In this document: positions 2,061-33,363 of the stretch, in pieces
How the letters are laid out: every line of letters begins with the position of its first letter
Numbering within the stretch: the stretch's first letter is position 1
Source: Escherichia phage EscoHU1
Reading direction: 5' to 3' (one strand)
Length of the DNA: 64,000 bases
Sequence record: NC_133119.1
The notes under the pieces: model-generated
Seen by the model: only the letters and a program-made list of their open reading frames with translations
Database searches by the model: none
Told to the model about the DNA's origin: nothing
Translations under genes and position numbers: made by a program

Positions 2061-2067
2061 TAAAATT

Positions 2068-2143
2068 TGGACGACCGCATGAGATTCGAACTCACATAAG
2101 GAGGTTTTGCAGGCCTCCGCCTAAGCCATTCAGCCAACGGTCG
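2068..2143 (-). tRNA. tRNA, anticodon read as GCA (Cys); tentative
   Basis: Acceptor CGACCGT/GCGGTCG, T-arm GTGAG-TTCGAAT-CTCAT, loop CTGCAAA, CCA. Confidence 0.45.
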
Positions 2144-2560: not shown

Positions 2561-2592
2561 TTTATGTAATAATTATACAGAACTTTAAGCGG

Positions 2593-2880: not shown

Positions 2881-2883
2881 ATT

Positions 2884-2958
2884 GGTGCACCCCGTTGGTA
2901 ACGATCCAACCTCTCAAGCTCTTCAGGCAAGCGCTAATCCATCTCAGCTAAAGGTGCA
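2884..2958 (-). tRNA. tRNA-like sequence with non-canonical T-loop; anticodon unresolved (possibly GAA)
   Basis: Acceptor GCACCTT/GGGGTGC plus CCA and T-stem GTTGG/CCAAC, but T-loop ATCGTTA and weak anticodon stem. Confidence 0.3.
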
Positions 2959-2963
2959 AATAT

Positions 2964-3041
2964 TGGCAAACCTACTAGGACTCGAACCTAGACCGTACGG
3001 TTTTGGAGACCGACATGCTGTCCAGTAACACTCTAGGGATG
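2964..3041 (-). tRNA. tRNA, anticodon loop CTCCAAA (Trp, CCA); acceptor pairing not verified
   Basis: T-arm CTAGG-TTCGAGT-CCTAG and anticodon arm CGGT-CTCCAAA-ACCG resemble tRNA-Trp; 5' acceptor strand could not be paired by eye. Confidence 0.35.
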
Positions 3042-3048
3042 CAGAAAT

Positions 3049-3125
3049 TGGCGTCCTGTGCGGGGATCGAACCCGCAAATCCTACCTTGAAAGGGTAGTG
3101 ACTTTACCAGTTTGTCTAACAGGAC
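3049..3125 (-). tRNA. tRNA-Glu (anticodon UUC)
   Basis: Perfect acceptor GTCCTGT/ACAGGAC, anticodon stem CTACC/GGTAG with loop CTTTCAA, T-arm GCGGG-TTCGATC-CCCGC, CCA. Confidence 0.65.
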
Positions 3126-3132
3126 TTAAATT

Positions 3133-3223
3133 TGGTGTTGGATGATGGAGTCGAACCACCCGAGACCCTTCCGAGTCGGCAGATTTACAGTCTGCTTCGC
3201 TACCTCTACGATACTAATCCAAC
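3133..3223 (-). tRNA. tRNA-Tyr (anticodon GUA), long variable arm
   Basis: Acceptor GTTGGAT/ATCCAAC, anticodon stem GCAGA/TCTGC with loop CTGTAAA, long variable arm, T-loop TTCGACT, CCA. Confidence 0.55.
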
Positions 3224-3413
3224 ATATTTGAATGAAAAGTAAGTCGGTTAAACTCAAGGTGGAATATTTCAGGAAATCCTGACTTTACCCCTAAAAGCAA
3301 CTCGCTTAGTTACTTCTCATTCAGATATGTTTTCCAAATTAGATAACTATTATACCAAGTTTTGAAGGACTGAGCAAGTCAAATTTTAAAGAACTTGCTC
3401 AGTGCTATATCAG

Positions 3414-3689
3414 TTACTCGAAGCTAGGAGTGACACTCAGTTTGAATGGAAGCTCGAACACTTCTTCATAATCATCATTGAGCGTAATTACACGACCTTC
3501 TAGCTTAGTCATGGTGATTTCGATATCAGCCCTTGCATCAGGAGCCATACCAGCTTCCACACATTTAGCTTTGACTTCCGGCAGAAGTTCTACATCGTAG
3601 AAATAAAGCCATTCAATCTCACCCTCCCAGCCACCCCAGGATTTACAAACAGCACTTTCAACACCAGTTGCAGTAACACGTTTTGACAT
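3414..3689 (-). CDS. hypothetical protein
   Basis: 91 aa ORF, promoter cassette at 3720-3749. Confidence 0.5.
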   Translation of the reverse strand: MSKRVTATGVESAVCKSWGGWEGEIEWLYFYDVELLPEVKAKCVEAGMAPDARADIEITMTKLEGRVITLNDDYEEVFELPFKLSVTPSFE

Positions 3690-3719
3690 TCGTTAACCCC
3701 TTCATCAATTTATATAACT

Positions 3720-3749
3720 ATTATATCAGAAATCTTAAGTAAAAAGCAA
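3720..3749 (-). promoter_or_regulatory. T5-type early promoter (-35 TTGCTT, -10 TATAAT)
   Basis: Reverse complement gives TTGCTT, 18-nt spacer, TATAAT, followed by the conserved AT-rich leader. Confidence 0.5.
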
Positions 3750-3779
3750 GTACATTTTTAAAATTTCTGCTTGGAGGAG

Positions 3780-4052
3780 TTAAACTCCTGATTCTTCAGC
3801 CAGATCAAGCCCAACCAACGTGATTGCCATAATAGCTGCGCCATGTTCTTTCTCTCCTAGCTCTTTGGCTTGAGTGAGAATATTGAGGAATTGCTTTTGA
3901 AAATCTGCAACTTCTTCTGTCATGCCTGCTTCAGCAATAATTCCTTTCAGCATAAAGCGTTGTGCTGTAATTTCAGGATTAGCCATTTGTTTTCTCCAGT
4001 TATTTAGAATGTAAGCCAAACTTAGGATCATAGCGATCGTAAGTCGTACCAT
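3780..4052 (-). CDS. hypothetical protein
   Basis: 90 aa ORF. Confidence 0.45.
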   Translation of the reverse strand: MVRLTIAMILSLAYILNNWRKQMANPEITAQRFMLKGIIAEAGMTEEVADFQKQFLNILTQAKELGEKEHGAAIMAITLVGLDLAEESGV

Positions 4053-4136
4053 TAGTTGAAGCCTTGATGCTATGAAAACGACAGTACATAAATTTACGTA
4101 GTGCTTTCTTAATAGCTTTCATTTTATTTCCTTAAT

Positions 4137-4214
4137 TTGGTAGGGGTGGTGGGATTCGAACCCACAAAACCCGAATTTTAAGTCCGGTACCTATGCCAAT
4201 TCGATTACACCCCC
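4137..4214 (-). tRNA. tRNA with anticodon UAA (Leu-type anticodon) but short variable loop
   Basis: Acceptor GGGGGTG/CACCCCT, anticodon stem CCGGA/TTCGG with loop CTTAAAA, 5-nt variable loop, T-arm GTGGG-TTCGAAT-CCCAC, CCA. Confidence 0.45.
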
Positions 4215-4223
4215 ATGTAATCT

Positions 4224-4571
4224 TTAGAGTTCGTAACCCTGAATATATCGAGCAAAACCAGTAATCTCGAACTGAATTGCCCATGCTACTTCCATATGCT
4301 CAATCTTACTAAAATGAGCGTCAGACTGTTCTAGGAAATAACGAGAGATTATAGGGAACTCAATGTCAAAATCTTCCTTATCCATACCATAGAAGAAGTT
4401 TCCAGAAATATTACGAACTTCACGAAAGAAATCCTCAATCTGAAAATCCATCAGAGGATAAGTATATTCCTCTTTGCTATCATCCGTTTGGAAGAAGCGG
4501 AAATGCACAAGGCAAGAGCCAATCAGATTTACTGCTGGAGTAGTGTAAATATCCATGTTAACCTCGATCAA
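4224..4571 (-). CDS. hypothetical protein
   Basis: 115 aa ORF. Confidence 0.5.
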   Translation of the reverse strand: MIEVNMDIYTTPAVNLIGSCLVHFRFFQTDDSKEEYTYPLMDFQIEDFFREVRNISGNFFYGMDKEDFDIEFPIISRYFLEQSDAHFSKIEHMEVAWAIQFEITGFARYIQGYEL

Positions 4572-4743
4572 TATCTAGAGAAATTCCAAATTCTGGATTA
4601 ATACCAGAACCATTACATGCTGCACATTCCCACTCTTCAAAACGCATATCGCCAGGTTCAGCATCATTAATAGTACCTGTTCCATGGCAGTGAGCACACA
4701 TGCACTCTTCTAGTTCTTGTTTAAGCTCTTGAAACTTAGACAT
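4558..4743 (-). CDS. hypothetical zinc-ribbon protein
   Basis: 61 aa ORF with two CxxC pairs (CAHCHG...CAAC). Confidence 0.5.
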   Translation of the reverse strand: MSKFQELKQELEECMCAHCHGTGTINDAEPGDMRFEEWECAACNGSGINPEFGISLDIDRG

Positions 4744-4760
4744 ATAGTCTCCTAGTTAAT

Positions 4761-4838
4761 TGGTGGCTCCCGGAGGATTCGAACCTACCTACCTTTCGCT
4801 TATGAGGCGACGGCTCATACCAAATGAGCTTGAGAACC
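4761..4838 (-). tRNA. tRNA with anticodon CAU (Met or lysidine-Ile)
   Basis: Acceptor GGTTCTC/GGGAGCC with G-U pairs, anticodon loop CTCATAA, T-loop TTCGAAT, CCA. Confidence 0.5.
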
Positions 4839-4843
4839 AAATT

Positions 4844-4937
4844 TGGAGGAAGATGCCAGACTCGAACTGGCACACCGTGTCTCCACAGCTACTGGCTGTT
4901 TAGCAAACAGCTCCCTTACCTTTAGGGTTAATCTTCC
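4844..4937 (-). tRNA. tRNA-Ser (anticodon GCU), type II
   Basis: Acceptor GGAAGAT/ATCTTCC, anticodon stem GCTGT/ACAGC with loop TTGCTAA, long variable arm, T-arm GCCAG-TTCGAGT-CTGGC, CCA. Confidence 0.55.
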
Positions 4938-4951
4938 AAATTTATGAATAT

Positions 4952-4980
4952 ATTATATTAGAAATTTAGCTTCATGGCAA
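4952..4980 (-). promoter_or_regulatory. T5-type promoter positioned to transcribe the downstream tRNA cluster
   Basis: Reverse complement TTGCCA-17-TATAAT; predicted start about 8 nt upstream of the tRNA-Ser 5' end. Confidence 0.5.
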
Positions 4981-5431
4981 GAAAATTTTTCAAGTTTTCT
5001 GTATTCATTTCATCTAAATCCATGAGGGAAGTAAACCCATTTAGTTTTTTAGCAAACTTCTCACCAGCAGAATCATTATCGCCTACGGCTACTACTTTAA
5101 AAGGTTGTAATTTTAGCTGCTTTAGCAATGCTTTGCTAGGGGAAGATCCTAGCATTGCTAGTGCGGGATATCCCGCGTTGTGTAGTGCCACAGCTTTAAA
5201 TACAGATTCTGCAACTAATACTAGGTCTTCATTACCTGTAAGAGTTTCTAAACCCCATAGACATTGAGTAGAAGAATGCGTAAAATATTTAGCTTCAGAA
5301 GGACATTTTCCATGACCTTTAGCTGCACTAGGGTTATATGTTTGATATCCACGTAACATGCCAGAGAAATCATACAGTGGAACTGTTAACCATCCATGTG
5401 GAGAGCCAACAGTGATACTTACCACTATCAA
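4958..5431 (-). CDS. Toprim-like domain protein; start unresolved (possible frameshift with upstream 34-codon ORF)
   Basis: 157 aa ORF with VLVAES...VVAVGDNDSAGEKFAKKL (Toprim-like E and DxD motifs); first codon in frame is TTG with no RBS; an RBS-preceded ATG ORF at 5369-5473 overlaps in another frame. Confidence 0.45.
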   Translation of the reverse strand: MIVVSITVGSPHGWLTVPLYDFSGMLRGYQTYNPSAAKGHGKCPSEAKYFTHSSTQCLWGLETLTGNEDLVLVAESVFKAVALHNAGYPALAMLGSSPSKALLKQLKLQPFKVVAVGDNDSAGEKFAKKLNGFTSLMDLDEMNTENLKNFLAMKLNF

Positions 5432-5505
5432 AGCCCCTAGATAAAAGATGTTGTTTTAACTCGTCAACAGTCATATATGACTCCTATCTATAATTTATAG
5501 AATAT

Positions 5506-5534
5506 ATTATATAGAAAATTTCGGCATTAAGCAA
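5506..5534 (-). promoter_or_regulatory. T5-type early promoter
   Basis: Reverse complement TTGCTT-17-TATAAT. Confidence 0.5.
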
Positions 5535-5542
5535 GTGAAATT

Positions 5543-5839
5543 TTACTGAACACTGCACTGATACACTTGTTTGATACGTGTCACTGACTTCTTAGTTGGA
5601 TTGATAGAAGAACCTTGCCACCAACGTGATTCTGAGCTGAGAACAGCACCAGGAACAGCTTGTTCTTTTGGCAGAACAATATCAAAACATTGCTCACCCA
5701 TATTATCTTTAATGTGTGACCAAATATCCAAAGTAAATCGTTCTAACTTATTACAAACCTGAACTTGACAAAGTTCCTGTTGCGGAGCAGCAAATACAGA
5801 AGTAGATACTAGAGTCAATGCAAGTACAATGCGTTTCAT
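5543..5839 (-). CDS. secreted/periplasmic Cys-containing protein, hypothetical
   Basis: 98 aa ORF with N-terminal signal peptide MKRIVLALTLVSTSVFAAP and several cysteines. Confidence 0.5.
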   Translation of the reverse strand: MKRIVLALTLVSTSVFAAPQQELCQVQVCNKLERFTLDIWSHIKDNMGEQCFDIVLPKEQAVPGAVLSSESRWWQGSSINPTKKSVTRIKQVYQCSVQ

Positions 5840-5869
5840 GTTTGATTCCTCTCTCGAATTTATAAATAT

Positions 5870-5898
5870 ATTATACAGAAATTTTCTATATTAAGCAA
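5870..5898 (-). promoter_or_regulatory. T5-type early promoter
   Basis: Reverse complement TTGCTT-17-TATAAT followed by AAGGAG-type RBS; GC hairpin terminator (5905-5935) just upstream on the transcript. Confidence 0.5.
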
Positions 5899-5945
5899 GT
5901 GAAAATTTCTGTATAATAGCCCTCGCTTAGAGGGCTATAACTACT

Positions 5946-6638
5946 TTATTTGTTAACGCGTACAAAGTATCCTTTATAGGCTCCAAGAATGGAGTTACCT
6001 AAGAATACTAGCCACATTGCTAGGATTGCATAAGATGCACCTGTAGATTGAGCAGTTACAAGCCAAATGTATACAGTACCAATGTTAATAGCAATCCAGA
6101 TCAGCCATTGTTCAGCATATTGCTTGACCATAAGCCACATAGCAATCACACTACCAACCGCAGTAAATGCATCGAGCATCGGGAATGGATCAGCTGTAGT
6201 AGCAAGGAAGCTACCGTAACCTAAAGTAGCTACTGCTAGAACCCCTAGAGTCAGCAAAGCTTGGGCTTTAGTCAGAATCTTAGTTGGAACATCTGGCAGA
6301 TTACTTGGCTTATTTTTATGCCATAAGTACATTCCGTAGAACTGCATAGGAACGTAGTACAATAGGTTTAATGCTGCGTTACCATAAAGATCTGCATTTA
6401 AAGCTGTAATACCATAGGTAAGAACACCAACTAAGCCCCAAATATAGTTGGAAACGCGTCCTTTTGCAACCAAAATAACACAAACTACGTTGGTTATCGC
6501 AGTAGCCCAATCTAGAGGTGTACCATTATAGTTAGCTAAACTAATGAAGGCAACCGCTATGAACAGCCACAGATATTCCAGAGGTTTCCAGTTTTTAAAG
6601 TCATTTACGAGATAGTTAGTCATATTAAAACTCTCCAA
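5946..6638 (-). CDS. pnuC: nicotinamide riboside transporter PnuC-like membrane protein
   Basis: About 230 aa, multi-pass hydrophobic protein with W/Y-rich helices resembling PnuC; overlaps and follows the NadR-like gene. Confidence 0.65.
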   Translation of the reverse strand: MESFNMTNYLVNDFKNWKPLEYLWLFIAVAFISLANYNGTPLDWATAITNVVCVILVAKGRVSNYIWGLVGVLTYGITALNADLYGNAALNLLYYVPMQFYGMYLWHKNKPSNLPDVPTKILTKAQALLTLGVLAVATLGYGSFLATTADPFPMLDAFTAVGSVIAMWLMVKQYAEQWLIWIAINIGTVYIWLVTAQSTGASYAILAMWLVFLGNSILGAYKGYFVRVNK

Positions 6639-7680
6639 CGTTAAAGTGATGAATCAGCCAGTCTACTGCGTTTACTGCTTCGTCCATACGAACTTTGTAG
6701 TCCGGGGAGTCGATGTAAACAGTACGCCCTTCAGGGAACTGATTTGGAAATTCTTTCTTCATCTGCTCGAACAGTTCAGAAGTAATTGAACGATCGGAGT
6801 TAATACGTAAACCATCATCTACCCACTTGACAGTAGGCGCTAGAACAATTACTAAATCGTAATGTTCTTCTTTTGCAATTGCTGTAACCACAGGGTTCTT
6901 ACGATGTTCATAAAGTCTGTGGTAGAACTCAGTAATAAAAGCATTTGTATCCACAAACATGATCTTATTTGCAGTACGTTCTGCTTCAAATTCTAGCTCT
7001 TTGTGTCTGAACGCAATTTTACTATAATCTTCGCTGGTAAGCAGATTTTCGTTACCAACTAGATCAACTTCACAATACGTTCGGCCATATTCTTCTACCC
7101 ACGAAGTGTTGTATAGCTTCGCAAGGTATTTTGTTAAAGTAGTCTTTCCCGAGCTTTCAGTCCCAATGATTACAACCTTACGCACGTAATCTTTACGAAC
7201 TACGCTAGGAAGAAACTCCCAATACTTCATAAGATCATTACGAATCATTGTAGCTGAGATTGGAACACGAGTCCGATCAGAATCTACAATATAATGACCA
7301 AACTTCGGCAGATATTTCTTATATTCTGCATCATAGTCTAGTTCGCTAGAGAAAATGGTGATCTCAGGCAAATGTCCATAATTTTCATTAAGGATTCTAG
7401 CATATTCCGGCCAACCATTCGGATATTCAGGAATATCATCTTCAATAATGTACTCTACCGAAACGTGCTCAATATCCGCGTAAGTTTGTTCTAACCAACG
7501 AAGTCGATTCTTTAACTGTAATACTTCCTGATCACGTGTGTTCTGCTTATCCAGCCAACGATTATCATGACTAACTACAACAATAACTCGTTCACACATA
7601 GTTGCTGCTGTGTTTATTAGGTTAATATGACCACGCGTTAATGGTGCGAACTTACCAATTACTAGACCAGTCTTAATCAT
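6625..7680 (-). CDS. nadR: NadR-like bifunctional NMN adenylyltransferase / ribosylnicotinamide kinase
   Basis: N-terminal GKFAPLTRGH (nucleotidyltransferase HxGH-type motif) and central P-loop GTESSGKTT; start taken at MIKTGLVIGKF with RBS. Confidence 0.7.
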   Translation of the reverse strand: MIKTGLVIGKFAPLTRGHINLINTAATMCERVIVVVSHDNRWLDKQNTRDQEVLQLKNRLRWLEQTYADIEHVSVEYIIEDDIPEYPNGWPEYARILNENYGHLPEITIFSSELDYDAEYKKYLPKFGHYIVDSDRTRVPISATMIRNDLMKYWEFLPSVVRKDYVRKVVIIGTESSGKTTLTKYLAKLYNTSWVEEYGRTYCEVDLVGNENLLTSEDYSKIAFRHKELEFEAERTANKIMFVDTNAFITEFYHRLYEHRKNPVVTAIAKEEHYDLVIVLAPTVKWVDDGLRINSDRSITSELFEQMKKEFPNQFPEGRTVYIDSPDYKVRMDEAVNAVDWLIHHFNVGEF

Positions 7681-7710
7681 ATTTGATTCCTCTCTCAAAT
7701 TTATAAATAT

Positions 7711-7739
7711 ATTATACAGAGAATTTAGCATTCAAGCAA
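7711..7739 (-). promoter_or_regulatory. T5-type early promoter upstream of the NadR-like gene
   Basis: Reverse complement TTGCTT-17-TATAAT with conserved leader ...CATAAATTTGAGAGAGG. Confidence 0.5.
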
Positions 7740-7855
7740 TCGAATTTTTTAACTTTTTAGAGGAAAATCGCAGGGCACTTAAGGGTAGCAGATGAGTGGT
7801 GAGGACCAGAAATTGTTACCCCAATAAAAATCCGGGGGCAATTTTTAAAGACCCC

Positions 7856-7884
7856 TTGACATTTTCGCTGGGATAGGATAAAGT
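7856..7884 (+). promoter_or_regulatory. sigma70-like promoter (TTGACA-17-TAAAGT) for the plus-strand islet
   Basis: TTGACATTTTCGCTG motif, nearly identical to the promoter at 37111. Confidence 0.4.
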
Positions 7885-7945
7885 ATATGTTATGGATGAG
7901 TGATCAAAGAGACACACATTTTCTATATACTAGGAGGTGTCAAAA

Positions 7946-8974
7946 ATGACAGAAGAAGTAGCTAAGAAACCTGAATCTCTAAGTGAAGTAGCAGCAGAAC
8001 TGCATCGTCACGAAGAATCAGACAAGAAAAAGTGGGAAAAGCTTAAAGCTCAAGAGCGAGCTGACGAGCATCATTATCATCATCACCATCATGAACACTA
8101 TGAGGAAGATGATGAAGACGACGAAGAAGAAGATGAACATGAACATCATGGTTATCACAAATATGGAGAAAGAAAAATGCAAGAACCAGTAAACGTATTC
8201 ACTAACGGCTTCCCTGGCCTGATGGGTGGTTACCCAGCTAACGCAGGTGCTTTCGGTGGAGAAGGTATGGGTCTATTCGGAGCTATCCTAATCGGTGCTC
8301 TATTAACAGGCGGATTCGGTGGATTTGGTGGATTTGGCGGACGTGGAGCAGGTGCTGTGGCTGAATTAACTGGTGTAGAAACTGTTCTGAGTAACCAAAA
8401 TACGTCAAGTATCCTATCTGCAATCAATACTGCTCGTACTGAAGCTAACCAGGGAACTGGTGCTGTTCTAAGCGCAGTAAATGGTGTAGGTGCTGCAGGT
8501 GCTGCTAGCACTCAGCAGATTCTGACTTCTCTGTACGGTACTGGTGCTAACCTGTCCAATCAGATCTGTCAGGAAACTCGTAGCGTTATTCAGGGTCAGT
8601 TTGACCTGTCTCGCCAGATCGATCAGTCCTTCGCGGCTAACCAGATCGCTCGTGCTCAAGACAAGTTTGATGCTGCTCAGATCGCTTTCCAGCAGACTAT
8701 TCAGACTAACAACCAGTTCGCTGCTGTAGCTGCACAGGCGTGCGCTAACCAGAACGCTCTGGAACGTCAGATCGCTGAATGTTGCTGTGAACTTCAGACT
8801 GCAATCGCTGGTGTAACTACTGCGCGTATTCAGGATGAATTAGATGAATGCCGTCTGCGTGAAGCAATCGCTGCAGGTAATGGTGCTAATGGTCAGGTAA
8901 TCAACCAAATCGCTGTAAGTCTTGGTGCTATCACTCAGACTCTAGCTGGTCTGCAGGCTAAACTGCCGGCTTAA
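7946..8974 (+). CDS. low-complexity protein: His/acidic N-terminus, glycine-zipper hydrophobic segment, Ala/Gln-rich C-terminus with Cys cluster
   Basis: ATG at 7946 with AGGAGG RBS (ORF track starts at GTG 7937); HHYHHHHHEHYEEDDEDDEEEDEHEHH, GLFGAILIGALLTGGFGGFGGFGG, C-terminal AECCCE; host-like codon usage. Confidence 0.55.
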   Translation: MTEEVAKKPESLSEVAAELHRHEESDKKKWEKLKAQERADEHHYHHHHHEHYEEDDEDDEEEDEHEHHGYHKYGERKMQEPVNVFTNGFPGLMGGYPANAGAFGGEGMGLFGAILIGALLTGGFGGFGGFGGRGAGAVAELTGVETVLSNQNTSSILSAINTARTEANQGTGAVLSAVNGVGAAGAASTQQILTSLYGTGANLSNQICQETRSVIQGQFDLSRQIDQSFAANQIARAQDKFDAAQIAFQQTIQTNNQFAAVAAQACANQNALERQIAECCCELQTAIAGVTTARIQDELDECRLREAIAAGNGANGQVINQIAVSLGAITQTLAGLQAKLPA

Positions 8975-8996
8975 TAATTAAGGGGAGGAGCCCATT

Positions 8997-9431
8997 ATGA
9001 GTAAATATGGTTTTGTGAACAACGGATTTAATCAACAAATGGGCTCCCAGCAGCCCGTTCCGGGTCTAGATAACCCTTACTTACAACAGTTGCAACAGCG
9101 TTTGGCAGAAGCACAAAATATGCAACAGCAGTTCCAACAACCTGGAACTGCTAACCCTATGCAGATGATGCAACAGCAAATGGTAGGGCAGCCGCAAATG
9201 CCTCAACAAATGCAGCCTCAGATGCAGCAAATGCAACAAATGCCTCAACAGCAGCAAGTTCAACAACTCCAACATCCGCAGGTATCTGCGGAAGGACAGG
9301 CTGTTCTAGCCCTTTTCGAAGACTTCGCTAAAACAGAGGATGGGAAGCAACTTGTATCGCTTATGGGTAAGTTTAACAGCTTCTGTCAGAGTCAGGTTGC
9401 AAAAGCTCAGAATGGGGGTAATAACTCCTAA
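8997..9431 (+). CDS. Gln/Met-rich low-complexity protein
   Basis: 144 aa, GGAGG RBS, long Q/M/P-rich tract (QQQMVGQPQMPQQMQPQMQQMQQMPQQQQ). Confidence 0.5.
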   Translation: MSKYGFVNNGFNQQMGSQQPVPGLDNPYLQQLQQRLAEAQNMQQQFQQPGTANPMQMMQQQMVGQPQMPQQMQPQMQQMQQMPQQQQVQQLQHPQVSAEGQAVLALFEDFAKTEDGKQLVSLMGKFNSFCQSQVAKAQNGGNNS

Positions 9432-9440
9432 GGAGAAATT

Positions 9441-9635
9441 ATGTGTTGTAGAAAACCTGTGTCATGCTGTCCTATGCCTGTAGCACGTTGTTGCTCTCCA
9501 GCAATGTTTACACAAATACCGGTGTTCAATCCCTTTGCCTTTAAGCCTACTCTTATCCTGCCCCCTAGAGTAGATTTTCAGTCAAGATTGGTCTCCCGTA
9601 TGGGTGGTTGCTGTACACCGAGAGTATGGTTCTAA
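9441..9635 (+). CDS. small Cys-rich protein
   Basis: 64 aa ORF with GGAGA RBS, CC pairs at both ends (MCCRKPVSCCP...GGCCTP). Confidence 0.4.
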   Translation: MCCRKPVSCCPMPVARCCSPAMFTQIPVFNPFAFKPTLILPPRVDFQSRLVSRMGGCCTPRVWF

Positions 9636-9647
9636 ACCAAAAAACAA

Positions 9648-9682
9648 AAGCCCCTACGTCTTTTGACTAGGGGCTTTCTTGT
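9648..9682. terminator. bidirectional intrinsic terminator
   Basis: GC hairpin AGCCCCTA...TAGGGGCT flanked by A-run upstream and T-run downstream, between convergent genes. Confidence 0.55.
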
Positions 9683-10213
9683 TTATAAATTTAAGTAATC
9701 TAGAGAAGGTATCACACCATCAAATTCTTCTAGGATAGCAAACTCTCCAGCAAATTCTTTCCTCATTTCGTTAGCTTTTGCTATCGCACTTCCAAGATCT
9801 TCGTAACCAAAAGATCCTCCTGATCTTTTAATACCTTCCTTATCTCTTATTAATACTCTCCATTTTTGCCTGTTCTTCTCCCAGCATACATTAGCATACC
9901 CAGACTTAGACTTTAATTTCTTATTTCTTTGATTTTGAGAATCTGTAGATTCTCTTAGATTGTCCCATGCATTATTATTTCTAATCCTATCTTTATGATC
10001 GACCATGCTAGGTAGGTATCCTTTTACATAAAGGAATGCTAGAACATGGGCTAAGTACATTTTTCCAGAGATCTGAATTCTGATATATCCATCAGATGTT
10101 AGGCTTCCCGCAATGCTGCCGGCCTTCTTGTTTCCTCTACTAACCTTATATGTAAACAATCCAGTTTCTTGATCATAGTCAAAAAGCTCTTTCAATTTTT
10201 CTTGAGTTAACAT
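9683..10213 (-). CDS. HNH homing endonuclease with AP2-type DNA-binding domain
   Basis: 176 aa; N-terminal HNH_3-like region (YIRIQISGKMYLAHVLAF...VDHKDRIRNNNAWDNLRE) and C-terminal AP2-like region (GYANVCWEKNRQKWRVLIRDKEG). Confidence 0.7.
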   Translation of the reverse strand: MLTQEKLKELFDYDQETGLFTYKVSRGNKKAGSIAGSLTSDGYIRIQISGKMYLAHVLAFLYVKGYLPSMVDHKDRIRNNNAWDNLRESTDSQNQRNKKLKSKSGYANVCWEKNRQKWRVLIRDKEGIKRSGGSFGYEDLGSAIAKANEMRKEFAGEFAILEEFDGVIPSLDYLNL

Positions 10214-10229
10214 AAGTTCCTTAAATACA

Positions 10230-10263
10230 GAAAAGCCCTGCGCTCTCCAGGGAACGCAGGGCT
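10230..10263 (-). terminator. intrinsic terminator downstream of the SPFH gene
   Basis: Hairpin GCCCTGCG...CGCAGGGC followed by a T-run on the minus strand. Confidence 0.5.
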
Positions 10264-10287
10264 TACTTCAGAGATTACATGCTGGTA

Positions 10288-11235
10288 TTACTTATTACGC
10301 ATATCCATGATCATCTGGCCATCGTAACCAGTTCCCACTACTGTTTGCGGTACACCACCTTGGTATTTTTCAGCACGAAGCATTTCAACTTCCAGCTGCT
10401 TCCAACGAATCATTTCAGGAGTAATGGTACGTTGCAGAGCGGCGTTAGCTTCAGCTTCTTTCTTAGCTGCGTACAGTTTAGCATCTGCGTCACGTTCGTT
10501 AGCTACTGCCATGTTTTCACGAGCAGAGCGATCTGCTTCAGCTTGCTTAACTTTCTGCTGTGCTTCTTGTTCAACACGAGCCAGTTCAGCTTTTGCTGCG
10601 TTAACTTGTTCTTCACGAACTTTTGTGTTCTGTACCTGTTCCATAATTACCGGTGGCAGAGTAATATCCTGAAGGAATACTTGCTTAACGGTGTAACCAT
10701 AAGGGCGCGCATACTCTTCTACTTCTTGCTGAATAGCAGTTTGCAGTTGAGCCTGAATCTTAGCGTCGAACAGATCTTGTGCTTTTGGTACAGACTTACC
10801 AAACTCACGAATCGTAGATAGCATCTTCTCTTCAACGTATTTGTTAAGAGCTTGATCCTGAGTACCTGCGTTAACACGGTTCATAGGAGCTTTAGCTCCA
10901 TCAAACTGTAACATAACGGTAATGTCAACAGTAGACTTAAACTTATCCTGGCTAGGAACCTGAAGTTTATCCAGTTTCATAGAAATATCTTTCGTACTAA
11001 AAGTATCAAAAGAGGCTAATGGGTTAACAATATGGAAGCCTGGCAATACAGGATTCGGGCTAACTTTACCCAGGAAAGTTTGAGTCTTAACAGTACCATC
11101 CTGAACAACTGTATAGGAATTGAGAGCCAGAATAAGAGCACCAAGACCAACAGCAGCACCAACACCCCAACGTTTAATAGTACGAATTACTTTTTGCTCA
11201 GAAGTCAGTTCTTTAGTGTTTTTAGTAAACATATA
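10288..11235 (-). CDS. SPFH/band-7 (HflC/HflK/prohibitin-like) membrane protein
   Basis: N-terminal transmembrane helix then band-7-like domain and long coiled-coil tail; start taken at MFTKNTKEL because the longer ORF would overlap tRNA-Arg. Confidence 0.6.
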   Translation of the reverse strand, partial: YMFTKNTKELTSEQKVIRTIKRWGVGAAVGLGALILALNSYTVVQDGTVKTQTFLGKVSPNPVLPGFHIVNPLASFDTFSTKDISMKLDKLQVPSQDKFKSTVDITVMLQFDGAKAPMNRVNAGTQDQALNKYVEEKMLSTIREFGKSVPKAQDLFDAKIQAQLQTAIQQEVEEYARPYGYTVKQVFLQDITLPPVIMEQVQNTKVREEQVNAAKAELARVEQEAQQKVKQAEADRSARENMAVANERDADAKLYAAKKEAEANAALQRTITPEMIRWKQLEVEMLRAEKYQGGVPQTVVGTGYDGQMIMDMRNK

Positions 11236-11265
11236 TTTCCTTTGTTTAGTTACAGTTAATAAAAT

Positions 11266-11340
11266 TGGCCGAGGTGACAGGATTCGAACCTGCATAAAGG
11301 AATTTAGAAGACTCCTGCCTATCCCTTAGACTACACCCCG
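11266..11340 (-). tRNA. tRNA-Arg (anticodon UCU)
   Basis: Acceptor CGGGGTG/CACCTCG, anticodon stem GGAGT/ATTCC with loop CTTCTAA, T-arm GCAGG-TTCGAAT-CCTGT, CCA. Confidence 0.55.
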
Positions 11341-13692: not shown

Positions 13693-13722
13693 AATAGCCT
13701 CGTCTCATCAATTTAAAAATAT

Positions 13723-13751
13723 ATTATACAGAAAACTAAACTAATTAGCAA
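13723..13751 (-). promoter_or_regulatory. T5-type early promoter
   Basis: Reverse complement TTGCTA-17-TATAAT, RBS and ATG of the 13692 gene follow. Confidence 0.5.
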
Positions 13752-14131
13752 ATACATTTTTAAATTGAGAGACTAGTAAACCGATAAACAGCCTAGAGGC
13801 GCCACAGGCCATATCTTATGAGCCATGTACCTTTGATCTAGGGTTTGAATCATCAACGAATACTTTGCATCTTTTAGCTTTAGAAGGTTAGAAGTTTGAG
13901 TTCTTTTAACTTTTCAGCTTTCATACTTGAGCGTTGATCTTTGAAGTTGTGTTGGTACTACCAACGACCGTTTTTACAGTTCAGCTTAAGAGGCTGGTGT
14001 AATAAACATAATCTCCAATAGATTATACTTTATAGTATGGTCAGCGGTCTTATTTAACCTCGTATTTCAACCGCTGCTGCGAGGTAAGATGCTTGGGCTT
14101 TCGTCTACCGATTTACTAGTCTTTTAAATTA

Positions 14132-15779: not shown

Positions 15780-15809
15780 AATTATGTCCTTTATTGTTGT
15801 AGAAAGCTA

Positions 15810-16022
15810 TTAAAGAGCTGTCTCTTTAATAGAATCCCACTGTTTGGGGTCTTTCAGAGGAAGTTCCTCTTCTTCAAACAGGTCTGTTCCATTTTCGTTA
15901 ACATCCCAGTTTTCTTCCATGATCTCTTCTAGAAGCTCATGTTTAGAAAGACGAGTGTAGTCTCTAGCAGATTTATGAGTGCTAGCACGATTAAAATCAT
16001 TCTTTGCAACGAAGTTACGCAT
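15810..16022 (-). CDS. hypothetical protein
   Basis: 70 aa ORF. Confidence 0.45.
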   Translation of the reverse strand: MRNFVAKNDFNRASTHKSARDYTRLSKHELLEEIMEENWDVNENGTDLFEEEELPLKDPKQWDSIKETAL

Positions 16023-16028
16023 AGTTTC

Positions 16029-16052
16029 TCCAAATAAGAGGGGCTTTCGCCC
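16029..16052 (-). terminator. stable hairpin, likely terminator or RNA-stabilising element
   Basis: GGGGGCGAAAGCCCC hairpin immediately downstream of gene 16064-16279. Confidence 0.4.
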
Positions 16053-16063
16053 CCTGATTTAAA

Positions 16064-16279
16064 TTACTTGCCCAGCAGTTTAAGGATATTTTCCTTAATA
16101 GTTTGAGCAGATTTTTCACTCTTATTGGTTTCAGCCAGTTTCAGAGCGAGTTCTTCCTGCTGTTTCTGAATATCAGCAGCAGTTTTCTGGTCAGCTTCAA
16201 TACGAGCTTGAAGTTCATCAGTAATAGTGGTAAAGGAAGCAACGATTTCAGTAACGGAACGTGGTTTCTTAGAGAACAT
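16064..16279 (-). CDS. hypothetical coiled-coil protein
   Basis: 71 aa ORF. Confidence 0.45.
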   Translation of the reverse strand: MFSKKPRSVTEIVASFTTITDELQARIEADQKTAADIQKQQEELALKLAETNKSEKSAQTIKENILKLLGK

Positions 16280-16311
16280 AAAAATATCCTTAATTAGTCA
16301 GAGAAAGAGTT

Positions 16312-16335
16312 AATATATGGGGCTTTCGCCCCATT
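16312..16335 (-). terminator. stable hairpin, likely terminator or RNA-stabilising element
   Basis: Same GGGGCGAAAGCCCC hairpin as at 16029, downstream of gene 16341-16856. Confidence 0.4.
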
Positions 16336-16340
16336 AATCA

Positions 16341-24477: not shown

Positions 24478-24541
24478 TCCTATAGTGTACTTCGCTAACA
24501 GAGGATCAACAAAAAGATCTTGTTTATCAACTTACAAATAT

Positions 24542-24570
24542 ATTATACCAATATATGTGGTAGAAAGCAA
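24542..24570 (-). promoter_or_regulatory. T5-type early promoter upstream of phoH
   Basis: Reverse complement TTGCTT-17-TATAAT. Confidence 0.5.
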
Positions 24571-24682
24571 CTACAATTTTAAATAAGCCTATGATATTGC
24601 ATTTAAATAAAAAATTTGCTTGCTTTTATTGGGAAATGTATGGTACTAGATAATCATTTTATATCGCGTACACGGGGGCGTG

Positions 24683-24711
24683 ATTATACTATTTTTAGTA
24701 GAGGTTGGCAA
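24683..24711 (-). promoter_or_regulatory. second leftward promoter in the divergent region (TTGCCA-17-TATAAT)
   Basis: Reverse complement TTGCCA, 17-nt spacer, TATAAT. Confidence 0.45.
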
Positions 24712-24772
24712 ATAAAATTTTTTGACTCAGATCAATTTACAGAATGTTATAGTAAAATATTGTTGACATCCG

Positions 24773-24801
24773 CCTTCGAATGAGTTATAATAGTAGTCTT
24801 A
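24773..24801 (+). promoter_or_regulatory. consensus sigma70 promoter upstream of nrdD
   Basis: TTGACA, 17-nt spacer, TATAAT, then AAGGAGAG RBS and ATG at 24821. Confidence 0.6.
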
Positions 24802-24820
24802 GTTAGAGAAGGAGAGTATA

Positions 24821-29121: not shown

Positions 29122-29159
29122 GCATGTTCAATAATATTTTCATGAAAGAGGTAAATCCT

Positions 29160-29552
29160 ATGCTTCTCAACTTCTGGTGCTCTCTCCCTAATGGTATGTA
29201 TAATGAAACCATCAATCTGCTCAAGATTTGGTGTGAGAATAACGATATCTTCTTATCCTTTAAAGGCCCGCTAGAGGAAGCTCCGTGTATTGGAGTTAGC
29301 GTGGATTTAGGGGAGGGAGTAGAAGAGATTGTAGACTGGAAAGAACTCGATGAAATGGGTCTGGTTTTTGCCTTGAACCATAAGCTGTTTATGCCTGCAA
29401 ATCACCGTCTTATTGTAAATTATCGCACTGGTGAAGCTCCTGCTTTCCAGGTAAATGAACGTGAGGGCTGGTCATATTCGCCCGAGGAAGTAAATGAGGG
29501 GATTCAGAAACTTCGTCGTTTCGGATATATGATCCCAGGTTTAACTGCTTAA
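29160..29552 (+). CDS. hypothetical protein, paralog A of a tandem pair
   Basis: AAGAGG RBS then ATG 29160; C-terminal half aligns with next gene (W.EL..MGL..ALN...F.P......TGE.P...V....W.Y.......L.R.G...PGL). Confidence 0.5.
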   Translation: MLLNFWCSLPNGMYNETINLLKIWCENNDIFLSFKGPLEEAPCIGVSVDLGEGVEEIVDWKELDEMGLVFALNHKLFMPANHRLIVNYRTGEAPAFQVNEREGWSYSPEEVNEGIQKLRRFGYMIPGLTA

Positions 29553-29561: not shown

Positions 29562-29957
29562 ATGGAACAAGTATTTTGGCGTCAGATAGATCCTAGTTTG
29601 GTAGAGCGTGCTGAGGGGCTCCTTGCACGTTGGTTGGGGGTTGACAAGGTTAGTGTAACATTTCCGTTTACTTCTGTAACAGACCCTAGTGTAGGTGTCT
29701 TTGTGGACGAAAATGAAGATGATGGTTGGGAAGCTGACTGGAATGAATTGTCCAGCATGGGCTTGATTGTTGCCCTCAACTTCTCTATATTCCATCCACG
29801 TGGCTTAGCCATTACACGTGACCCCGAAACTGGTGAATCCCCTTATCTTTTGCAAGTAGAAGATGATATTTGGGAGTACACCGAAGATATTCTCGAAGAA
29901 GCTAAAGGTCAATTAAATCGCATTGGAATCTATGTCCCAGGCCTAAATGATGATTGA
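29562..29957 (+). CDS. hypothetical protein, paralog B of a tandem pair
   Basis: 131 aa; clear similarity to the preceding ORF; AAGGAGG RBS. Confidence 0.5.
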   Translation: MEQVFWRQIDPSLVERAEGLLARWLGVDKVSVTFPFTSVTDPSVGVFVDENEDDGWEADWNELSSMGLIVALNFSIFHPRGLAITRDPETGESPYLLQVEDDIWEYTEDILEEAKGQLNRIGIYVPGLNDD

Positions 29958-30048
29958 TTTTCATTAGCTCAATCCTGATTACCGAGTCAAAATGACTCGG
30001 TTTTCTCTGTGCTCAAGGACACTGATAGCACCTTCGGAAAAATTTTAC

Positions 30049-30077
30049 TTGCAGGATGCTCAAAATCTTGATATAAT
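30049..30077 (+). promoter_or_regulatory. T5-type promoter (TTGCAG-17-TATAAT) heading a long leader
   Basis: Same cassette architecture as other early promoters; no ORF for about 490 nt downstream. Confidence 0.45.
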
Positions 30078-30573
30078 ATTTATATTGAATTGAGAGACAT
30101 TAGTAAAAATTGATTTTGCTAATTTTTCTTGTTTACAATCCGCAATACGGAACAGTTAGGCTGCCCCATTAAGGGTTGTTTTAACTATTACTAGTGTTTA
30201 TACTGCATTAGTTAATTATCAATTAAGTGATCTGCGTACCCTGAATTCGGAAAGGTAAATCCAAACCGTGCATATTTAGCTCGTTATATAGGCAGAGTTT
30301 TATATGGGGGTGCGAACGAAAAGAGCAGCGAATGGTGACACGTCCAGTAGCCACCTACCAATAGGATAGTGAGGGCAATCAGAATCGGCTTAGCGGCCAA
30401 TGACCTAGGTTCTGATCTGGATAAGAGTTAAGAGAGCGCAGCACTGAGGTATGATAACTTATTCATACTGCTTGATGATGATTAATGTTTGTGTAAATGG
30501 TAGTAATAGTTGTTCTATTCTTCTGAATAGTCCTAAAGAAAGATATCCGAATAACCAACATAGGAGTATTGTT
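30078..30573 (+). other. long ORF-free 5' leader, candidate structured RNA or replication-associated element
   Basis: About 500 nt between promoter and the GTG start at 30574; GC-elevated core at about 30150-30450. Confidence 0.3.
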
Positions 30574-33363
30574 GTGTTCTCAATCCTACAAGGTCACGCA
30601 GGATTTTCCAGAGATAAAGCCACTGGCATCTGGAAAGAGATCAAAGTGGAAGATTACACCTTTGCAAAGCGATTCTCTAAAGAGCATCCAGAAGGTAAAC
30701 CAGCTTCCATGCCCTTCAAATTTGATGTACTTGAAGAACTTGACCCGCAAAACCTTGCTGAAATGTTACCTATCATGCGTCGTCTTACCAAAGACCCGCA
30801 TATTGTAGCTATTCGTGGTAAATGTTTAGCCCCAAAAGATAATGTGCGTCGTACCAGGGGAAACTTTAACGTATCCAATCCTAGTCATATTATTGCTATG
30901 GACGTGGATGGTATTGTAGATACTGGTGGTTATGACAAGTTTAATCTTGTTGGCATGGCACGTCATATTATTAAGATGTTGAATAGTATTAGCGAGGATA
31001 TGTTTCCTCTTGATGCAGGGTTTATTGCCCATGCATCGTCTTCGGCTGGATTAAAACCAGGTATCCGAATGCACTTAATGCTAGAATCTAATGTCAAGGT
31101 AACGCAGGGACAGTTAAAGTTCTTATTTACATCTATCAATGACAGTAGTAAGCAAAAGTATGGCTTTGATATTGCTGACTTAGCTTATTATTCTTCTGTT
31201 CAGCTTCACTATTTTGCAGATCCCTTATTTGATGATGGTATAGTCGATCCGTTTAAAGCGGAGAATAAACCACGTCTTGTATATGTTAAGGGTTCGAAGG
31301 TGAATCTACCTAATAACCTAGTTGACTTTGAAACAACTAGAGGTGAGTTTAAAGAAGAGTTCTACTCCTTACTTGATCAAATTAAAGGCAAGAAGGCTGC
31401 ATCTGATAAAGTGGAAGAAACCATCAGCGAACTAGAAGAAGCTGAGGATGGAGTGTACCTGCGTATTATCCCAAAACTTTATCACAGAGCGTTAGAAGAT
31501 GGTGTTGACTTTACGTGGTTAGAACGTGAGATTAAACCAGCTTTATCTGAGTATATTGCGACTAAAGATAATAGTCGTAATATTCAAGATTACTTTAATA
31601 ACGGTCGTAAGCAGGCTCTCAAAGCCTTTGTAAATAACTCCAAACGTGAGATTCCACCAAACTTAAAAGGTGTACCATTAAAACGTCTAGACACAGATTC
31701 TCCACCAGAAGTTCCGTACCTGAAAATTAACATTGTACCCCCAAAAGGACATTTAACATTTGTTAAGGCAAGTCTTGGTACGGGTAAAACTACAGCAGTA
31801 ACTAAGTGGCTAGATGCAGGTGTTCTTCCAGGAAACTTTATTGCAATCACAAATACTAGGGCACTTGTATCTTCTAACGCGAAGAAATTCGGTGCTGGTC
31901 AGTATGATAAGTCAGTTGATATGCTGAACTTCAAACGTGGTGCCATTGATCGTATGTCTTCAACTATTCACTCTATCCATAAGTTCAAGAGCTTTGTGGG
32001 TCAGATTGATACGATCTTTATTGATGAATGTGACGCAGTAATGAATGATCTGTTATTCGCTCCGGTTGTTAAAAACCGTCGTGAATGTATTCAGGTTCTT
32101 CGTGATATCCTTATTACTGCTAAAACTGTTATCTTATCCGATGGTGATATCAGTGCAGAAACGATTGAAGCCTATGGTTCTTTGATTGATTTTGATAAAC
32201 CAGTCGCATTTTATAATCACCACCGTAAAATGCTGGCGAAAGCTCATGCTTATGAATTCCCTGATGAATCCAGTATTTGGGTTGCACTTCAAACATCTTT
32301 AGAGATGGGGGAGAAATCAATCCTAGTATCTGACTGTGGCCCGGATGAACTGAATGAGAAGGGAATGGCATTACGTCGTAATACTGGTGCGTTAGTTAAA
32401 GAAATTCACTCAAACTCTACGTCTGATGTAGATATCCGACGTATTCTGGATTATACAACTAATGAGCTAATTGATCAACAGATTGATTGTTTATTATGTA
32501 GTCCATCTGTAACGAGTGGTGTTGACTTTAACTATTTTGATAACGTATTCGTAATCACTAGAACCTCAAACCAAGCGCCAAACATGCGTTTTCAAGCAAT
32601 CAGGCGCGACCGTGGTGCTCAGAACATTTATTATTTTATTGATAAATCTACGAGTGGATTCTCTGCGGGTTCCGAGCAATATAATATTGACGAGGGTTGG
32701 ATTGAGTTAGCTCAGCAACTGTACGCACGCCGTCGTGAGCTGGAATCTAGAAACTATACCAGTACTTTGCGTTATTATCTTCTCGATCAAGGTGCAACTA
32801 TTGATATCTTCAGTGAAAGCTGGGGGACTATCGAAGGTGCAGGCAAAGAGTATACAGAAGAGCGAATCAAAGCTATTCTGCACTCAACTCCTGAATATTG
32901 CGCACCACGTCATGCAGATGCCTATGAAGCCAAGTTACTTCTGGTTCGCTATTATCATCTGGATTCTATTAAAGATGTAACAGTGGAACACGTTGAACAG
33001 TATATCAAGGATAAACCGAATGATAGAGCTGCATTTTTCCATAAGATGCACGAGATGTTCTGGGAAGATATCAAGAAGTGTTCAAACGTAACAATCAAAC
33101 CTTTTATTGAAGCTCTTAAGAATAAGAAGAAGGATTTCTTCCTTAAGACAGGTCAGAGTGCTAACCCAAAATATGCTCGTATGTATCTTGGCATGATGGG
33201 TATCGGTAAAGATCTGGATACGGAAAAGATTGTGGACTGGTACAGAACTTACTGTAAGATCGAATGTATGCCGATTCCAGTTAAGTTTATGACAGATGAA
33301 GAACGTCAGATGCATGAGGAAGCTCTTGCTGAATTGGGAGCTAGAAATGACAGTGAAGAATAA
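30574..33363 (+). CDS. large P-loop NTPase, putative replication initiation / origin-binding helicase-like protein
   Basis: GTG start with AGGAG RBS; N-terminal primase-like region (IIAMDVDGIV), Walker A GTGKTT, Walker B-like IFIDECD. Confidence 0.45.
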   Translation: MFSILQGHAGFSRDKATGIWKEIKVEDYTFAKRFSKEHPEGKPASMPFKFDVLEELDPQNLAEMLPIMRRLTKDPHIVAIRGKCLAPKDNVRRTRGNFNVSNPSHIIAMDVDGIVDTGGYDKFNLVGMARHIIKMLNSISEDMFPLDAGFIAHASSSAGLKPGIRMHLMLESNVKVTQGQLKFLFTSINDSSKQKYGFDIADLAYYSSVQLHYFADPLFDDGIVDPFKAENKPRLVYVKGSKVNLPNNLVDFETTRGEFKEEFYSLLDQIKGKKAASDKVEETISELEEAEDGVYLRIIPKLYHRALEDGVDFTWLEREIKPALSEYIATKDNSRNIQDYFNNGRKQALKAFVNNSKREIPPNLKGVPLKRLDTDSPPEVPYLKINIVPPKGHLTFVKASLGTGKTTAVTKWLDAGVLPGNFIAITNTRALVSSNAKKFGAGQYDKSVDMLNFKRGAIDRMSSTIHSIHKFKSFVGQIDTIFIDECDAVMNDLLFAPVVKNRRECIQVLRDILITAKTVILSDGDISAETIEAYGSLIDFDKPVAFYNHHRKMLAKAHAYEFPDESSIWVALQTSLEMGEKSILVSDCGPDELNEKGMALRRNTGALVKEIHSNSTSDVDIRRILDYTTNELIDQQIDCLLCSPSVTSGVDFNYFDNVFVITRTSNQAPNMRFQAIRRDRGAQNIYYFIDKSTSGFSAGSEQYNIDEGWIELAQQLYARRRELESRNYTSTLRYYLLDQGATIDIFSESWGTIEGAGKEYTEERIKAILHSTPEYCAPRHADAYEAKLLLVRYYHLDSIKDVTVEHVEQYIKDKPNDRAAFFHKMHEMFWEDIKKCSNVTIKPFIEALKNKKKDFFLKTGQSANPKYARMYLGMMGIGKDLDTEKIVDWYRTYCKIECMPIPVKFMTDEERQMHEEALAELGARNDSEE

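Follow-up and report, generated by a model that had tools for sequence, protein, structure and literature searches.

What is the long leader of gene D2 for? In Escherichia phage EscoHU1, 496 nucleotides (nt) separate the promoter of this gene from its GTG start codon, and they hold no conserved open reading frame (ORF). The sequence under study is a 64-kb window (64,000 nt) from this T5-like phage of the genus Epseptimavirus, and all positions given here are those of the window. An earlier note on the same DNA had remarked on about 490 nt lacking a credible ORF after the promoter, which holds, and had offered three explanations: a structured regulatory leader, a small RNA, or a cis-acting replication origin. 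Comparison with related phages suggests that the leader very probably works as a functional structured RNA, and not as DNA or through a peptide. The RNA would belong to a new family of large structured RNAs, and in EscoHU1 it is predicted to be made as the leader of the D2 messenger RNA (mRNA).

Evidence for a folded RNA is provided by compensatory changes between related leaders. The alignment A4 contains 22 leaders from five lineages, and its RNAalifold consensus has 52 base pairs. In this alignment 96.3% of cells are paired and 31 of the 52 pairs have changed on both sides, with none of 500 shuffles scoring as high. If the partners are slid by one to three columns, pairing drops to 38–49% and the covarying pairs to 10–14; over all alignments, such slid controls are 33–49% paired. 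A separate alignment, A10, covers the core of the element in lineages other than type A, the version carried by EscoHU1. Here 91.4% of cells are paired and 36 of 54 pairs are compensated, a number that rises to 39 of 54 when type A sequences are added. The search for covariation in related phages that the earlier note had proposed thus gives counts well above the controls.

The same pairs indicate which strand folds. G-U pairs make up 21.5% of cells, and pairing is 96.3% on the plus strand but 75.6% on the minus strand. Because of this drop, the folded molecule is taken to be the plus strand. The predicted fold of the EscoHU1 leader is also better than that of shuffled sequence, more so on the plus strand (z -3.9) than on the minus strand (z -2.3). 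Leaders elsewhere give z-scores of -3.2 (type B), -4.1 (the related locus L043), -2.4 (Pectobacterium phage My1), -2.4 (L049) and -2.9 (L045). The argument rests on covariation, however, and not on folding energy. Compensatory changes in excess of the controls, and on one strand, are the pattern by which a conserved structured RNA can be recognised from aligned sequences.

A covariance model provides a further line of evidence. The model R1 was built from non-type-A sequences only and run on the whole window. It returns a single match, at 30224–30447 on the plus strand, which is full length and scores 37.2 bits (E 2.6e-10).

Coding capacity does not explain the leader. Its ORFs are all of 43 amino acids (aa) or fewer and mostly start with TTG or GTG, and no ORF keeps its position, frame or sequence from one lineage to the next. 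The sole recurring peptide fragment, AAKP on the minus strand, simply results from reading an invariant RNA motif in reverse. Some GenBank records nevertheless call ORFs of 30–60 aa in the gap (WP85, GlastoCabaret and 70E34-1b). Annotated hypothetical proteins of this size lie within the element at 2038–2540 of locus L002 (WP85), 1039–1442 of L008 and 808–1432 of L013. In the records of enterobacterial phages, such small-protein annotations inside the element are very likely artefacts.

Selection appears to act on the sequence all the same. Compared with T5, the leader is 94–100% identical over 30074–30323, against 66–90% for neighbouring coding DNA. Since the leader is more conserved than the flanking genes, purifying selection on non-coding sequence is indicated. 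The earlier note had held that poor conservation together with lack of structure, or else a conserved small ORF, would speak against a functional leader; what is found is strong covariation and no shared ORF.

The leader also differs in composition from its surroundings. The elevated GC content that the earlier note saw at about 30150–30450 is real but narrower, reaching 44–52% at 30250–30450, with 27% at 30050–30149 and 29% at 30450–30549. In the plus-strand early-gene block, at 24.8–52 kb, the leader is the longest stretch without an ORF of at least 80 aa. Longer gaps occur in the tRNA region of the window. Two more stretches of 440–560 nt without an ORF of at least 80 aa lie outside the tRNA clusters, at 13693–14131 and 15780–16340.

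Does the RNA belong to a known family? Rfam 15 gives no match in 29900–30700 even at E≤10, its models including GOLLD, ROOL, OLE, HEARO, group I and II introns, RNase P, 6S and riboswitches. Over the whole window Rfam finds tRNAs only, and in twelve related loci searched at E≤1 it finds nothing relevant. ARAGORN detects no tRNA or tmRNA in the leader; all 14 tRNAs of the window are at 335–11340 on the minus strand. None of the inspected records annotates the RNA, including two T5 reference records. Both of these mark the terminator and promoter homologous to those of EscoHU1 ("putative early promoter T5P32") and leave the next 470 nt or so without a feature. Full-text literature searches turned up no description of this RNA.

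From the pair counts and sequence motifs, the folded RNA is predicted to be about 430–450 nt long, extending from near 30084 to about 30535, and to contain at least 11 helices, numbered here from the 5' end. All features described below are on the plus strand.

The 5'-terminal hairpin, P1 (30084–30139), is an AT-rich near-palindrome. It consists of an outer stem, UUGAGAG/UUUCUUG, and an inner stem, AUUAGUAAAA/UUUUGCUAAU, which together (helices 1 and 2) are 94–97% paired. The inner stem shows compensatory changes in the Klebsiella phages, L043 and My1. The outer stem contains G-U pairs and is therefore specific to the plus strand.

P1 is followed by P2 (30144–30170), a small hairpin with the near-invariant sequence ACGGAACAGUUAGGCUGCC. 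Its pairs are 30144–46 with 30168–70, 30149–50 with 30164–65, and 30153–56 with 30160–63. This helix (helix 3) is 100% paired, with GG/CC replaced by AG/CU in the Klebsiella phages and CAGU/GCUG by CGGU/GCCG in L101. An alternative P2, AGGCUGCCC/GGGUUGUUU, predicted from type A sequences alone, was rejected as it cannot form in L043 or My1.

P3 is a long, irregular closing rod of about 40 base pairs (bp), formed by 30182–30222 with 30472–30512 (inverted repeat I1). Double changes are seen in six of nine pairs of this helix (helix 4), for instance AACUAUUAC/GUAAUAGUU versus AACUGUUAC/GUAACAGUU.

The rod encloses the core domain (30224–30447), which coincides with the R1 match, is supported by the pair counts and comprises P4, P5, an unpaired box, P7, P8 and P9. 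P4 is formed by 30227–29 and 30232–37 with 30436–44. Its 6 bp occur in six compensated versions across lineages: CUGCGU/GCGCAG, CUGUGU/GCACAG, CUACAC/GUGUAG, CUACAU/GUGUAG, CUAGAA/UUCUAG and CUGUAU/GUACAG. P5 (30238–30242 with 30307–30311) encloses two hairpins. The conserved unpaired box, GAGNAGYG, is at about 30322–30329 and reads GAGCAGCG in EscoHU1. P7 (30342–47 with 30417–22) closes a three-way junction, of which P8 (30350–76) is one arm.

The hallmark of the core is the hairpin P9 (30378–30416). It has a 9-bp outer stem (30378–86 with 30408–16), a 9-nt bulge on the 3' side, a GGC/GCC stem, and an invariant UUAGCG hexaloop at 30390–30395. All eight of the eight outer pairs counted covary (helix 10, in the core alignment with type A), while CUUAGCGG of P9 is invariant in every enterobacterial-phage lineage.

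Two smaller hairpins complete the RNA. P10 (30448–30469) lies between P4 and the 3' strand of P3, and its loop is GUUGCCACCCC in other lineages. P11 (30515–30530), CUAUUC/GAAUAG in EscoHU1 and CUAUC/GAUAG in the Klebsiella phages, is followed by the invariant UCCUAAAGAAA. P11 is not a terminator; it may be a processing or stabilising signal.

In EscoHU1 the interval between the RNA and D2 has no predicted terminator, and a weak promoter-like site at 30428–30455 is not conserved in type B leaders. Because there is neither a terminator nor a conserved second promoter before D2, the RNA is most simply made as the 5' part of the D2 mRNA. Some segments of it could pair with the translation start region. 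In the Markadamsvirinae, GCRAUAC or AACAGU (30142–30156) can pair with GUAUUGUU, located between the Shine-Dalgarno site and the GTG. UCCU at 30531–34 can pair with the Shine-Dalgarno site itself. These pairings are not conserved in the Klebsiella phages, L043 or My1.

Transcription of the leader is predicted to begin near 30084, at an early-class sigma-70 promoter (30038–30077). This consists of an A/T tract, the -35 element TTGCAG at 30049–30054, a 17-nt spacer, a TG at 30069–30070 and the -10 element TATAAT at 30072–30077. TTGCAG matches TTGACA at only three of six positions, and a generic promoter scan therefore misses it. The same cassette, with A/T tract, TTGCnn, 17 nt, TATAAT, an ATATT-type discriminator and "AAATTGAGAG", recurs about 35 times in the window, so that the earlier note was right to place a promoter of the common cassette type at 30049–30077. 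In the other copies the "TTGAGAG" box leads to a Shine-Dalgarno site within about 25 nt, whereas 496 nt follow the copy at D2. T5 early promoters typically carry the ATATT discriminator (PMC7472727). Upstream of the promoter, the preceding operon ends at an intrinsic terminator (29981–30006), a 9-bp hairpin at 29981–30001 followed by a T-run, which is conserved in relatives and annotated in T5 and HASG4. The region 29950–30620 is 99.9% identical to Salmonella phage LVR16A.

The gene downstream is a homologue of T5 gene D2 (T5.108), and is annotated as "replication origin binding protein" or "DNA primase". With its Shine-Dalgarno site it covers 30561–33363 and encodes 929 aa. The GTG at 30574, which the earlier note had also chosen, is supported as the start by the AGGAG at 30561–30565 and by tblastn, whose alignments start at residue 1 in every genus of enterobacterial phages. 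The protein matches phrog_3712 over its full length and the Pfam family of the herpesvirus origin-binding helicase weakly (PF02399, E 5e-5). T5 D2 is a bipolar helicase of superfamily 2 that can unwind duplex DNA; the authors who characterised it propose a role as initiator, which is unproven (PMC3632103).

How widespread is the element? The gap upstream of D2 is 600–720 nt in Tequintavirus and Epseptimavirus, 598 nt in the Klebsiella phages of the genus Sugarlandvirus, 590 nt in My1 and 433 nt in Serratia phage Kamaji, and longer in more distant members. The position of the element is the same in the Markadamsvirinae, Sugarlandvirus, My1 and other lineages. Leaders of the Markadamsvirinae hardly vary over their 5' 125 nt and their last 70 nt, and their centre occurs in two very different versions of equal length. 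EscoHU1 has type A and T5 a close variant of it, A'; DT57C, chee24 and other phages have type B.

Two kinds of insertion are seen at the locus. In SP15 and S132, genes for HNH homing endonucleases (L005, 513–965, and L103, 448–900) lie between the upstream terminator and the RNA promoter. The promoter region is replaced there, with a different -35 element and spacer, and the RNA is intact. The other insertion is an extra 89-nt module between P1 and P2, flanked by the 8-nt direct repeat TTTTTCTT and present in single copy in 51 T5-like phage records. It is located, for instance, at about 973–1069 of L006 (DT57C), equivalent to an insertion after 30123 of the window, and also in L027, L030 and L048. 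The module is found in type A, A' and B backgrounds. It behaves like an expansion segment, and could be one or a mobile insert with a single site.

More distant relatives can be traced through the loop of P9. The UUAGCG-loop hairpin is found on the plus strand, and never on the minus strand, in L045, in L049 and twice in Aeromonas T5-like phages. With filters off, R1 detects the P7–P9 three-way junction of L049 weakly (E 0.004) and the P9 hairpin of L045 at noise level, and nothing in the Kamaji, Aeromonas or Vibrio loci. Among distant loci, an nhmmer sequence profile made from A4 finds only L101, and P9 cannot be aligned in structural register across all lineages with MAFFT. A strict two-motif DNA pattern matches only T5-like contigs in IMG/VR, together with one chance match (L078). 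A metagenome scan for relatives of D2 yields 10 loci, mostly close relatives.

Two of the distant arrangements separate the element from D2. In L045 an 820-nt gap contains a consensus promoter, a long hairpin and the UUAGCG motif; a second consensus promoter, TTGACA-18-TATAAT, lies between the element and D2, directly before the gene. In the Aeromonas phages (L014, 1–1308, and L060, 1–1306), no credible ORF is seen in the 1.2 kb or more upstream of D2. The first 500 nt of this stretch are 80% conserved between the two phages. The stretch shows compensated hairpins and folds at z -6.2. The stretch also has two UUAGCG-loop hairpins and a long-range closing helix of 12–13 bp that covaries between the two phages. 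It ends in a terminator-like hairpin of -23 to -28 kcal/mol with a U-run, followed by a short D2 leader. The Aeromonas stretch could represent either a tandem pair of RNAs or a single, much larger relative of the RNA.

In the Vibrio T5-like phages (L011, L012 and L013), long purine-rich non-coding stretches occupy 700–1040 nt upstream of D2. Some motifs are common to Quinn and JSF12, and the stretch in L013 is bracketed by terminators. These stretches were dropped as counterparts, since they fold no better than shuffled sequences (z -0.4 to +1.8).

The best explanation of the locus as a whole, held here with slightly better than even confidence, is that the leader is the template of a conserved structured RNA of about 430–450 nt, likeliest an autonomous module. 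Host RNA polymerase would transcribe it from the T5 early-class promoter, starting near 30084. The transcript would fold into P1, P2 and the P3 rod, which would carry the branched P4–P9 core with its invariant unpaired motifs, the UUAGCG hexaloop and the GAGNAGYG box. The RNA would be co-transcribed with D2 and possibly cleaved off near P11 or the AU-rich segment. It could then act as a stable scaffold for early or replication proteins, or as a partner of one or more of them. Such an autonomous module, co-transcribed with D2, is the most likely single role, with a chance that falls a little short of even. It is favoured over a switch for D2 translation because the apparent counterparts in the Aeromonas phages and L045 are separated from D2, by the terminator-like hairpin and the consensus promoter respectively, and because its size, branching and invariant unpaired motifs resemble RNAs of the ribonucleoprotein or ribozyme class more than switches.

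Several observations weigh against this explanation. Thermodynamic support is uneven: the leader of the Klebsiella phages has a z-score of only -0.8, and that of Kamaji +0.3. The independent lineages number only about 7–8, which means fewer independent compensatory events than one would gather from the cell counts, and the consensus structures were predicted by RNAalifold from the same alignments in which pairs were later counted. Homology to the Aeromonas and L045 elements rests on the short UUAGCG motif, and both covariance model and nhmmer miss them. The long non-coding stretches of the Vibrio phages lack evidence of structure. The transcript start, 3' end, stability and processing are all predictions. 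Finally, in the T5 group nothing separates the RNA from D2, an arrangement that fits a plain cis-acting leader equally well.

A purely cis-acting leader is the most serious alternative, although a rather unlikely one. The folded 5' untranslated region would set the stability or translation of D2 mRNA, through autoregulation by D2, control by another early protein, or sensing of a metabolite. The contiguity of RNA and gene in the T5 group, with no terminator and no conserved internal promoter, agrees with this, as do the position of P1 at the extreme 5' end, where known stabiliser hairpins are found, and the potential of the 30142–30156 motifs and UCCU to pair with the start region. Those pairings are missing, however, from the Klebsiella phages, L043 and My1, and nothing like the expression platform of a riboswitch or attenuator, such as a terminator before D2, is seen. 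The separate D2 promoter of L045 and the hairpin that follows the Aeromonas element also speak against it, and most known cis-regulators are smaller than this RNA, with its more than 400 nt and at least 11 helices. Of the explanations in the earlier note, the structured regulatory leader is accordingly the closest: abundant covariation bears out the structure, and the element is indeed the leader of D2, while its regulatory role is a candidate only. The small RNA was wrong in scale. Unannotated small protein genes, or a functionless decaying remnant, have a negligible chance. The ORFs in the gap are not shared between lineages and mostly have TTG or GTG starts, and the origin of the one shared fragment, AAKP, is explained above; decay is ruled out by conservation above that of the flanking genes together with compensatory changes.

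The remaining alternatives place a function in replication at the locus. An early-promoter RNA could form an R-loop or primer, or recruit D2, and thereby start replication, as in ColE1 RNA II or the promoter-dependent origins of T4 and T7. This is distinctly unlikely. The only positive evidence is that the element constantly adjoins the putative initiator D2 across the phage family, and this is weak evidence for an origin because gene order is conserved throughout the family. In keeping with an origin transcript are also the strong promoter, the AT-rich flanks (27–29% GC) around a structured core, the position of the element near the middle of the T5 genome (about 59.1–59.5 kb of 121.75 kb), and the ability of D2 to unwind duplex DNA, with the initiator role suggested by the authors of that study (PMC3632103). 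The flanks coincide with the promoter and P1 on one side and part of the P3 rod on the other, which would account for them without an unwinding element. No origin has been mapped at the D2 leader, and according to the literature T5 origins were never mapped to sequence (PMC10055335). When T5 is edited with recombitrons, a single strand bias dominates, which is interpreted as replication proceeding mainly from one end of the genome (PMC10055335). The leader contains no iterons, only two-copy repeats of 8–16 nt with 75–100% identity, and no cluster of DnaA boxes, only a single box with one mismatch at 30416–30424. A consensus scan finds no minus-strand promoter-like site in 30084–30573 that could produce an antisense RNA of the RNA I type. 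GC skew rises steadily through 30 kb and changes sign at about 24–24.5 kb, together with the direction of transcription, about 6 kb from the leader. A function of the DNA itself is very improbable: a double-stranded origin or protein-binding region, or plus-strand hairpins in single-stranded DNA that load a primosome or primase. Covariation alone cannot separate RNA from single-stranded DNA of the same strand, and P1 is a near-palindrome. Cruciforms are nonetheless incompatible with helices reaching across as much as about 330 nt, with numerous G-U (G-T) pairs and with a minus strand that is 75.6% paired. Moreover, the structured part begins right after the promoter, the equivalent Aeromonas stretch ends at a terminator-like hairpin, and repeats typical of binding-site arrays are absent. 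Taken with the strand-specific pairing, these results do not support the cis-acting replication origin of the earlier note at the leader.

Elsewhere in the window, 24478–24820 is a divergent promoter region, with minus-strand promoters up to 24711 and plus-strand promoters from 24763. The only change of sign in GC skew within the left half of the window falls here. Judged by its composition alone, this region is a better candidate for an origin than the site at 30 kb.

The autonomous RNA module can be compared with known systems. Few structured RNAs exceed 400 nt and have many conserved unpaired nucleotides, and such RNAs have repeatedly proved to be ribozymes or ribonucleoprotein machines. 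GOLLD, ROOL, OLE and HEARO resemble the leader RNA: they too are longer than 400 nt, with numerous covarying helices and with unpaired motifs that do not vary. Two of them, GOLLD and ROOL, are borne by phages or prophages and were recognised by comparative genomics alone, as here. Unlike these, the leader RNA matches no Rfam model, is confined to T5-like phages, lies upstream of D2 and not near tRNA genes, and is fused to an mRNA in the T5 group.

A possible analogy is RNA II of plasmid ColE1. It too is an untranslated RNA of about 500 nt with multiple hairpins, made from a strong promoter beside a replication-initiation function, and its fold matters. The two share no similarity of sequence or model, Rfam giving no hit; no antisense RNA I promoter was found in the leader by the scan, its transcript runs into a protein gene, and no origin is known downstream of it.

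Leaders of plasmid rep genes, such as R1 CopT/repA and the repZ pseudoknot of IncB and IncI plasmids, are likewise long, folded and directly upstream of the gene for a replication initiator. They differ in being 100–200 nt long and dependent on an antisense RNA, for which the promoter scan gave no candidate here, and the start-site pairings of the D2 leader are not conserved outside the Markadamsvirinae. T4 oriF and oriG, which form R-loops, and the primary origin of T7 (phi1.1A/B) resemble the D2 locus in that a strong promoter precedes AT-rich DNA close to genes for replication. In those origins a short unwinding element suffices and there is no large conserved RNA fold. The D2 locus, for its part, has no known origin activity, and recombitron data favour a start near the genome end (PMC10055335).

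A bolder proposal is that the leader RNA founds a new class of large RNAs in phages and works together with D2, an initiator resembling a primase or helicase. It could be a cofactor or scaffold, an RNA that specifies or primes an origin, or a ribozyme. This is speculative and, on present evidence, unlikely. If true, it would provide the first handle on how T5 DNA replication starts, and the core, which diverges rapidly (types A and B) yet keeps its structure, would set lineage specificity, much as the loops of RNA I and RNA II determine plasmid incompatibility.

Although T5 has served as a model for 70 years and phage therapy and biocontrol make wide use of its relatives, none of the records inspected annotates the element. 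The element deserves annotation as an RNA feature, and can be used as a marker to tell T5-like lineages apart (types A, A' and B). An RNA on the mRNA of a presumed replication initiator also offers a concrete, mutable target for the question of T5 initiation.

Some features of the neighbouring genes may be added. For residues 1–400 of D2 (30574–31773) no Pfam or PDB relative was found. A protein database search with this N-terminal domain returned two fragments, and a single-sequence AlphaFold model was unusable (pLDDT 38). Within the N-terminal part, D110-x-D112 and H167 are invariant. These residues recall motifs of archaeo-eukaryotic primases, which may explain the "DNA primase" annotations.

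The two genes directly upstream, at 29124–29552 and 29562–29957, encode paralogous small proteins of 142 and 131 aa. They share the motifs …DW.EL..MGL..ALN…TGE.P…PGL and look like a tandem duplication.

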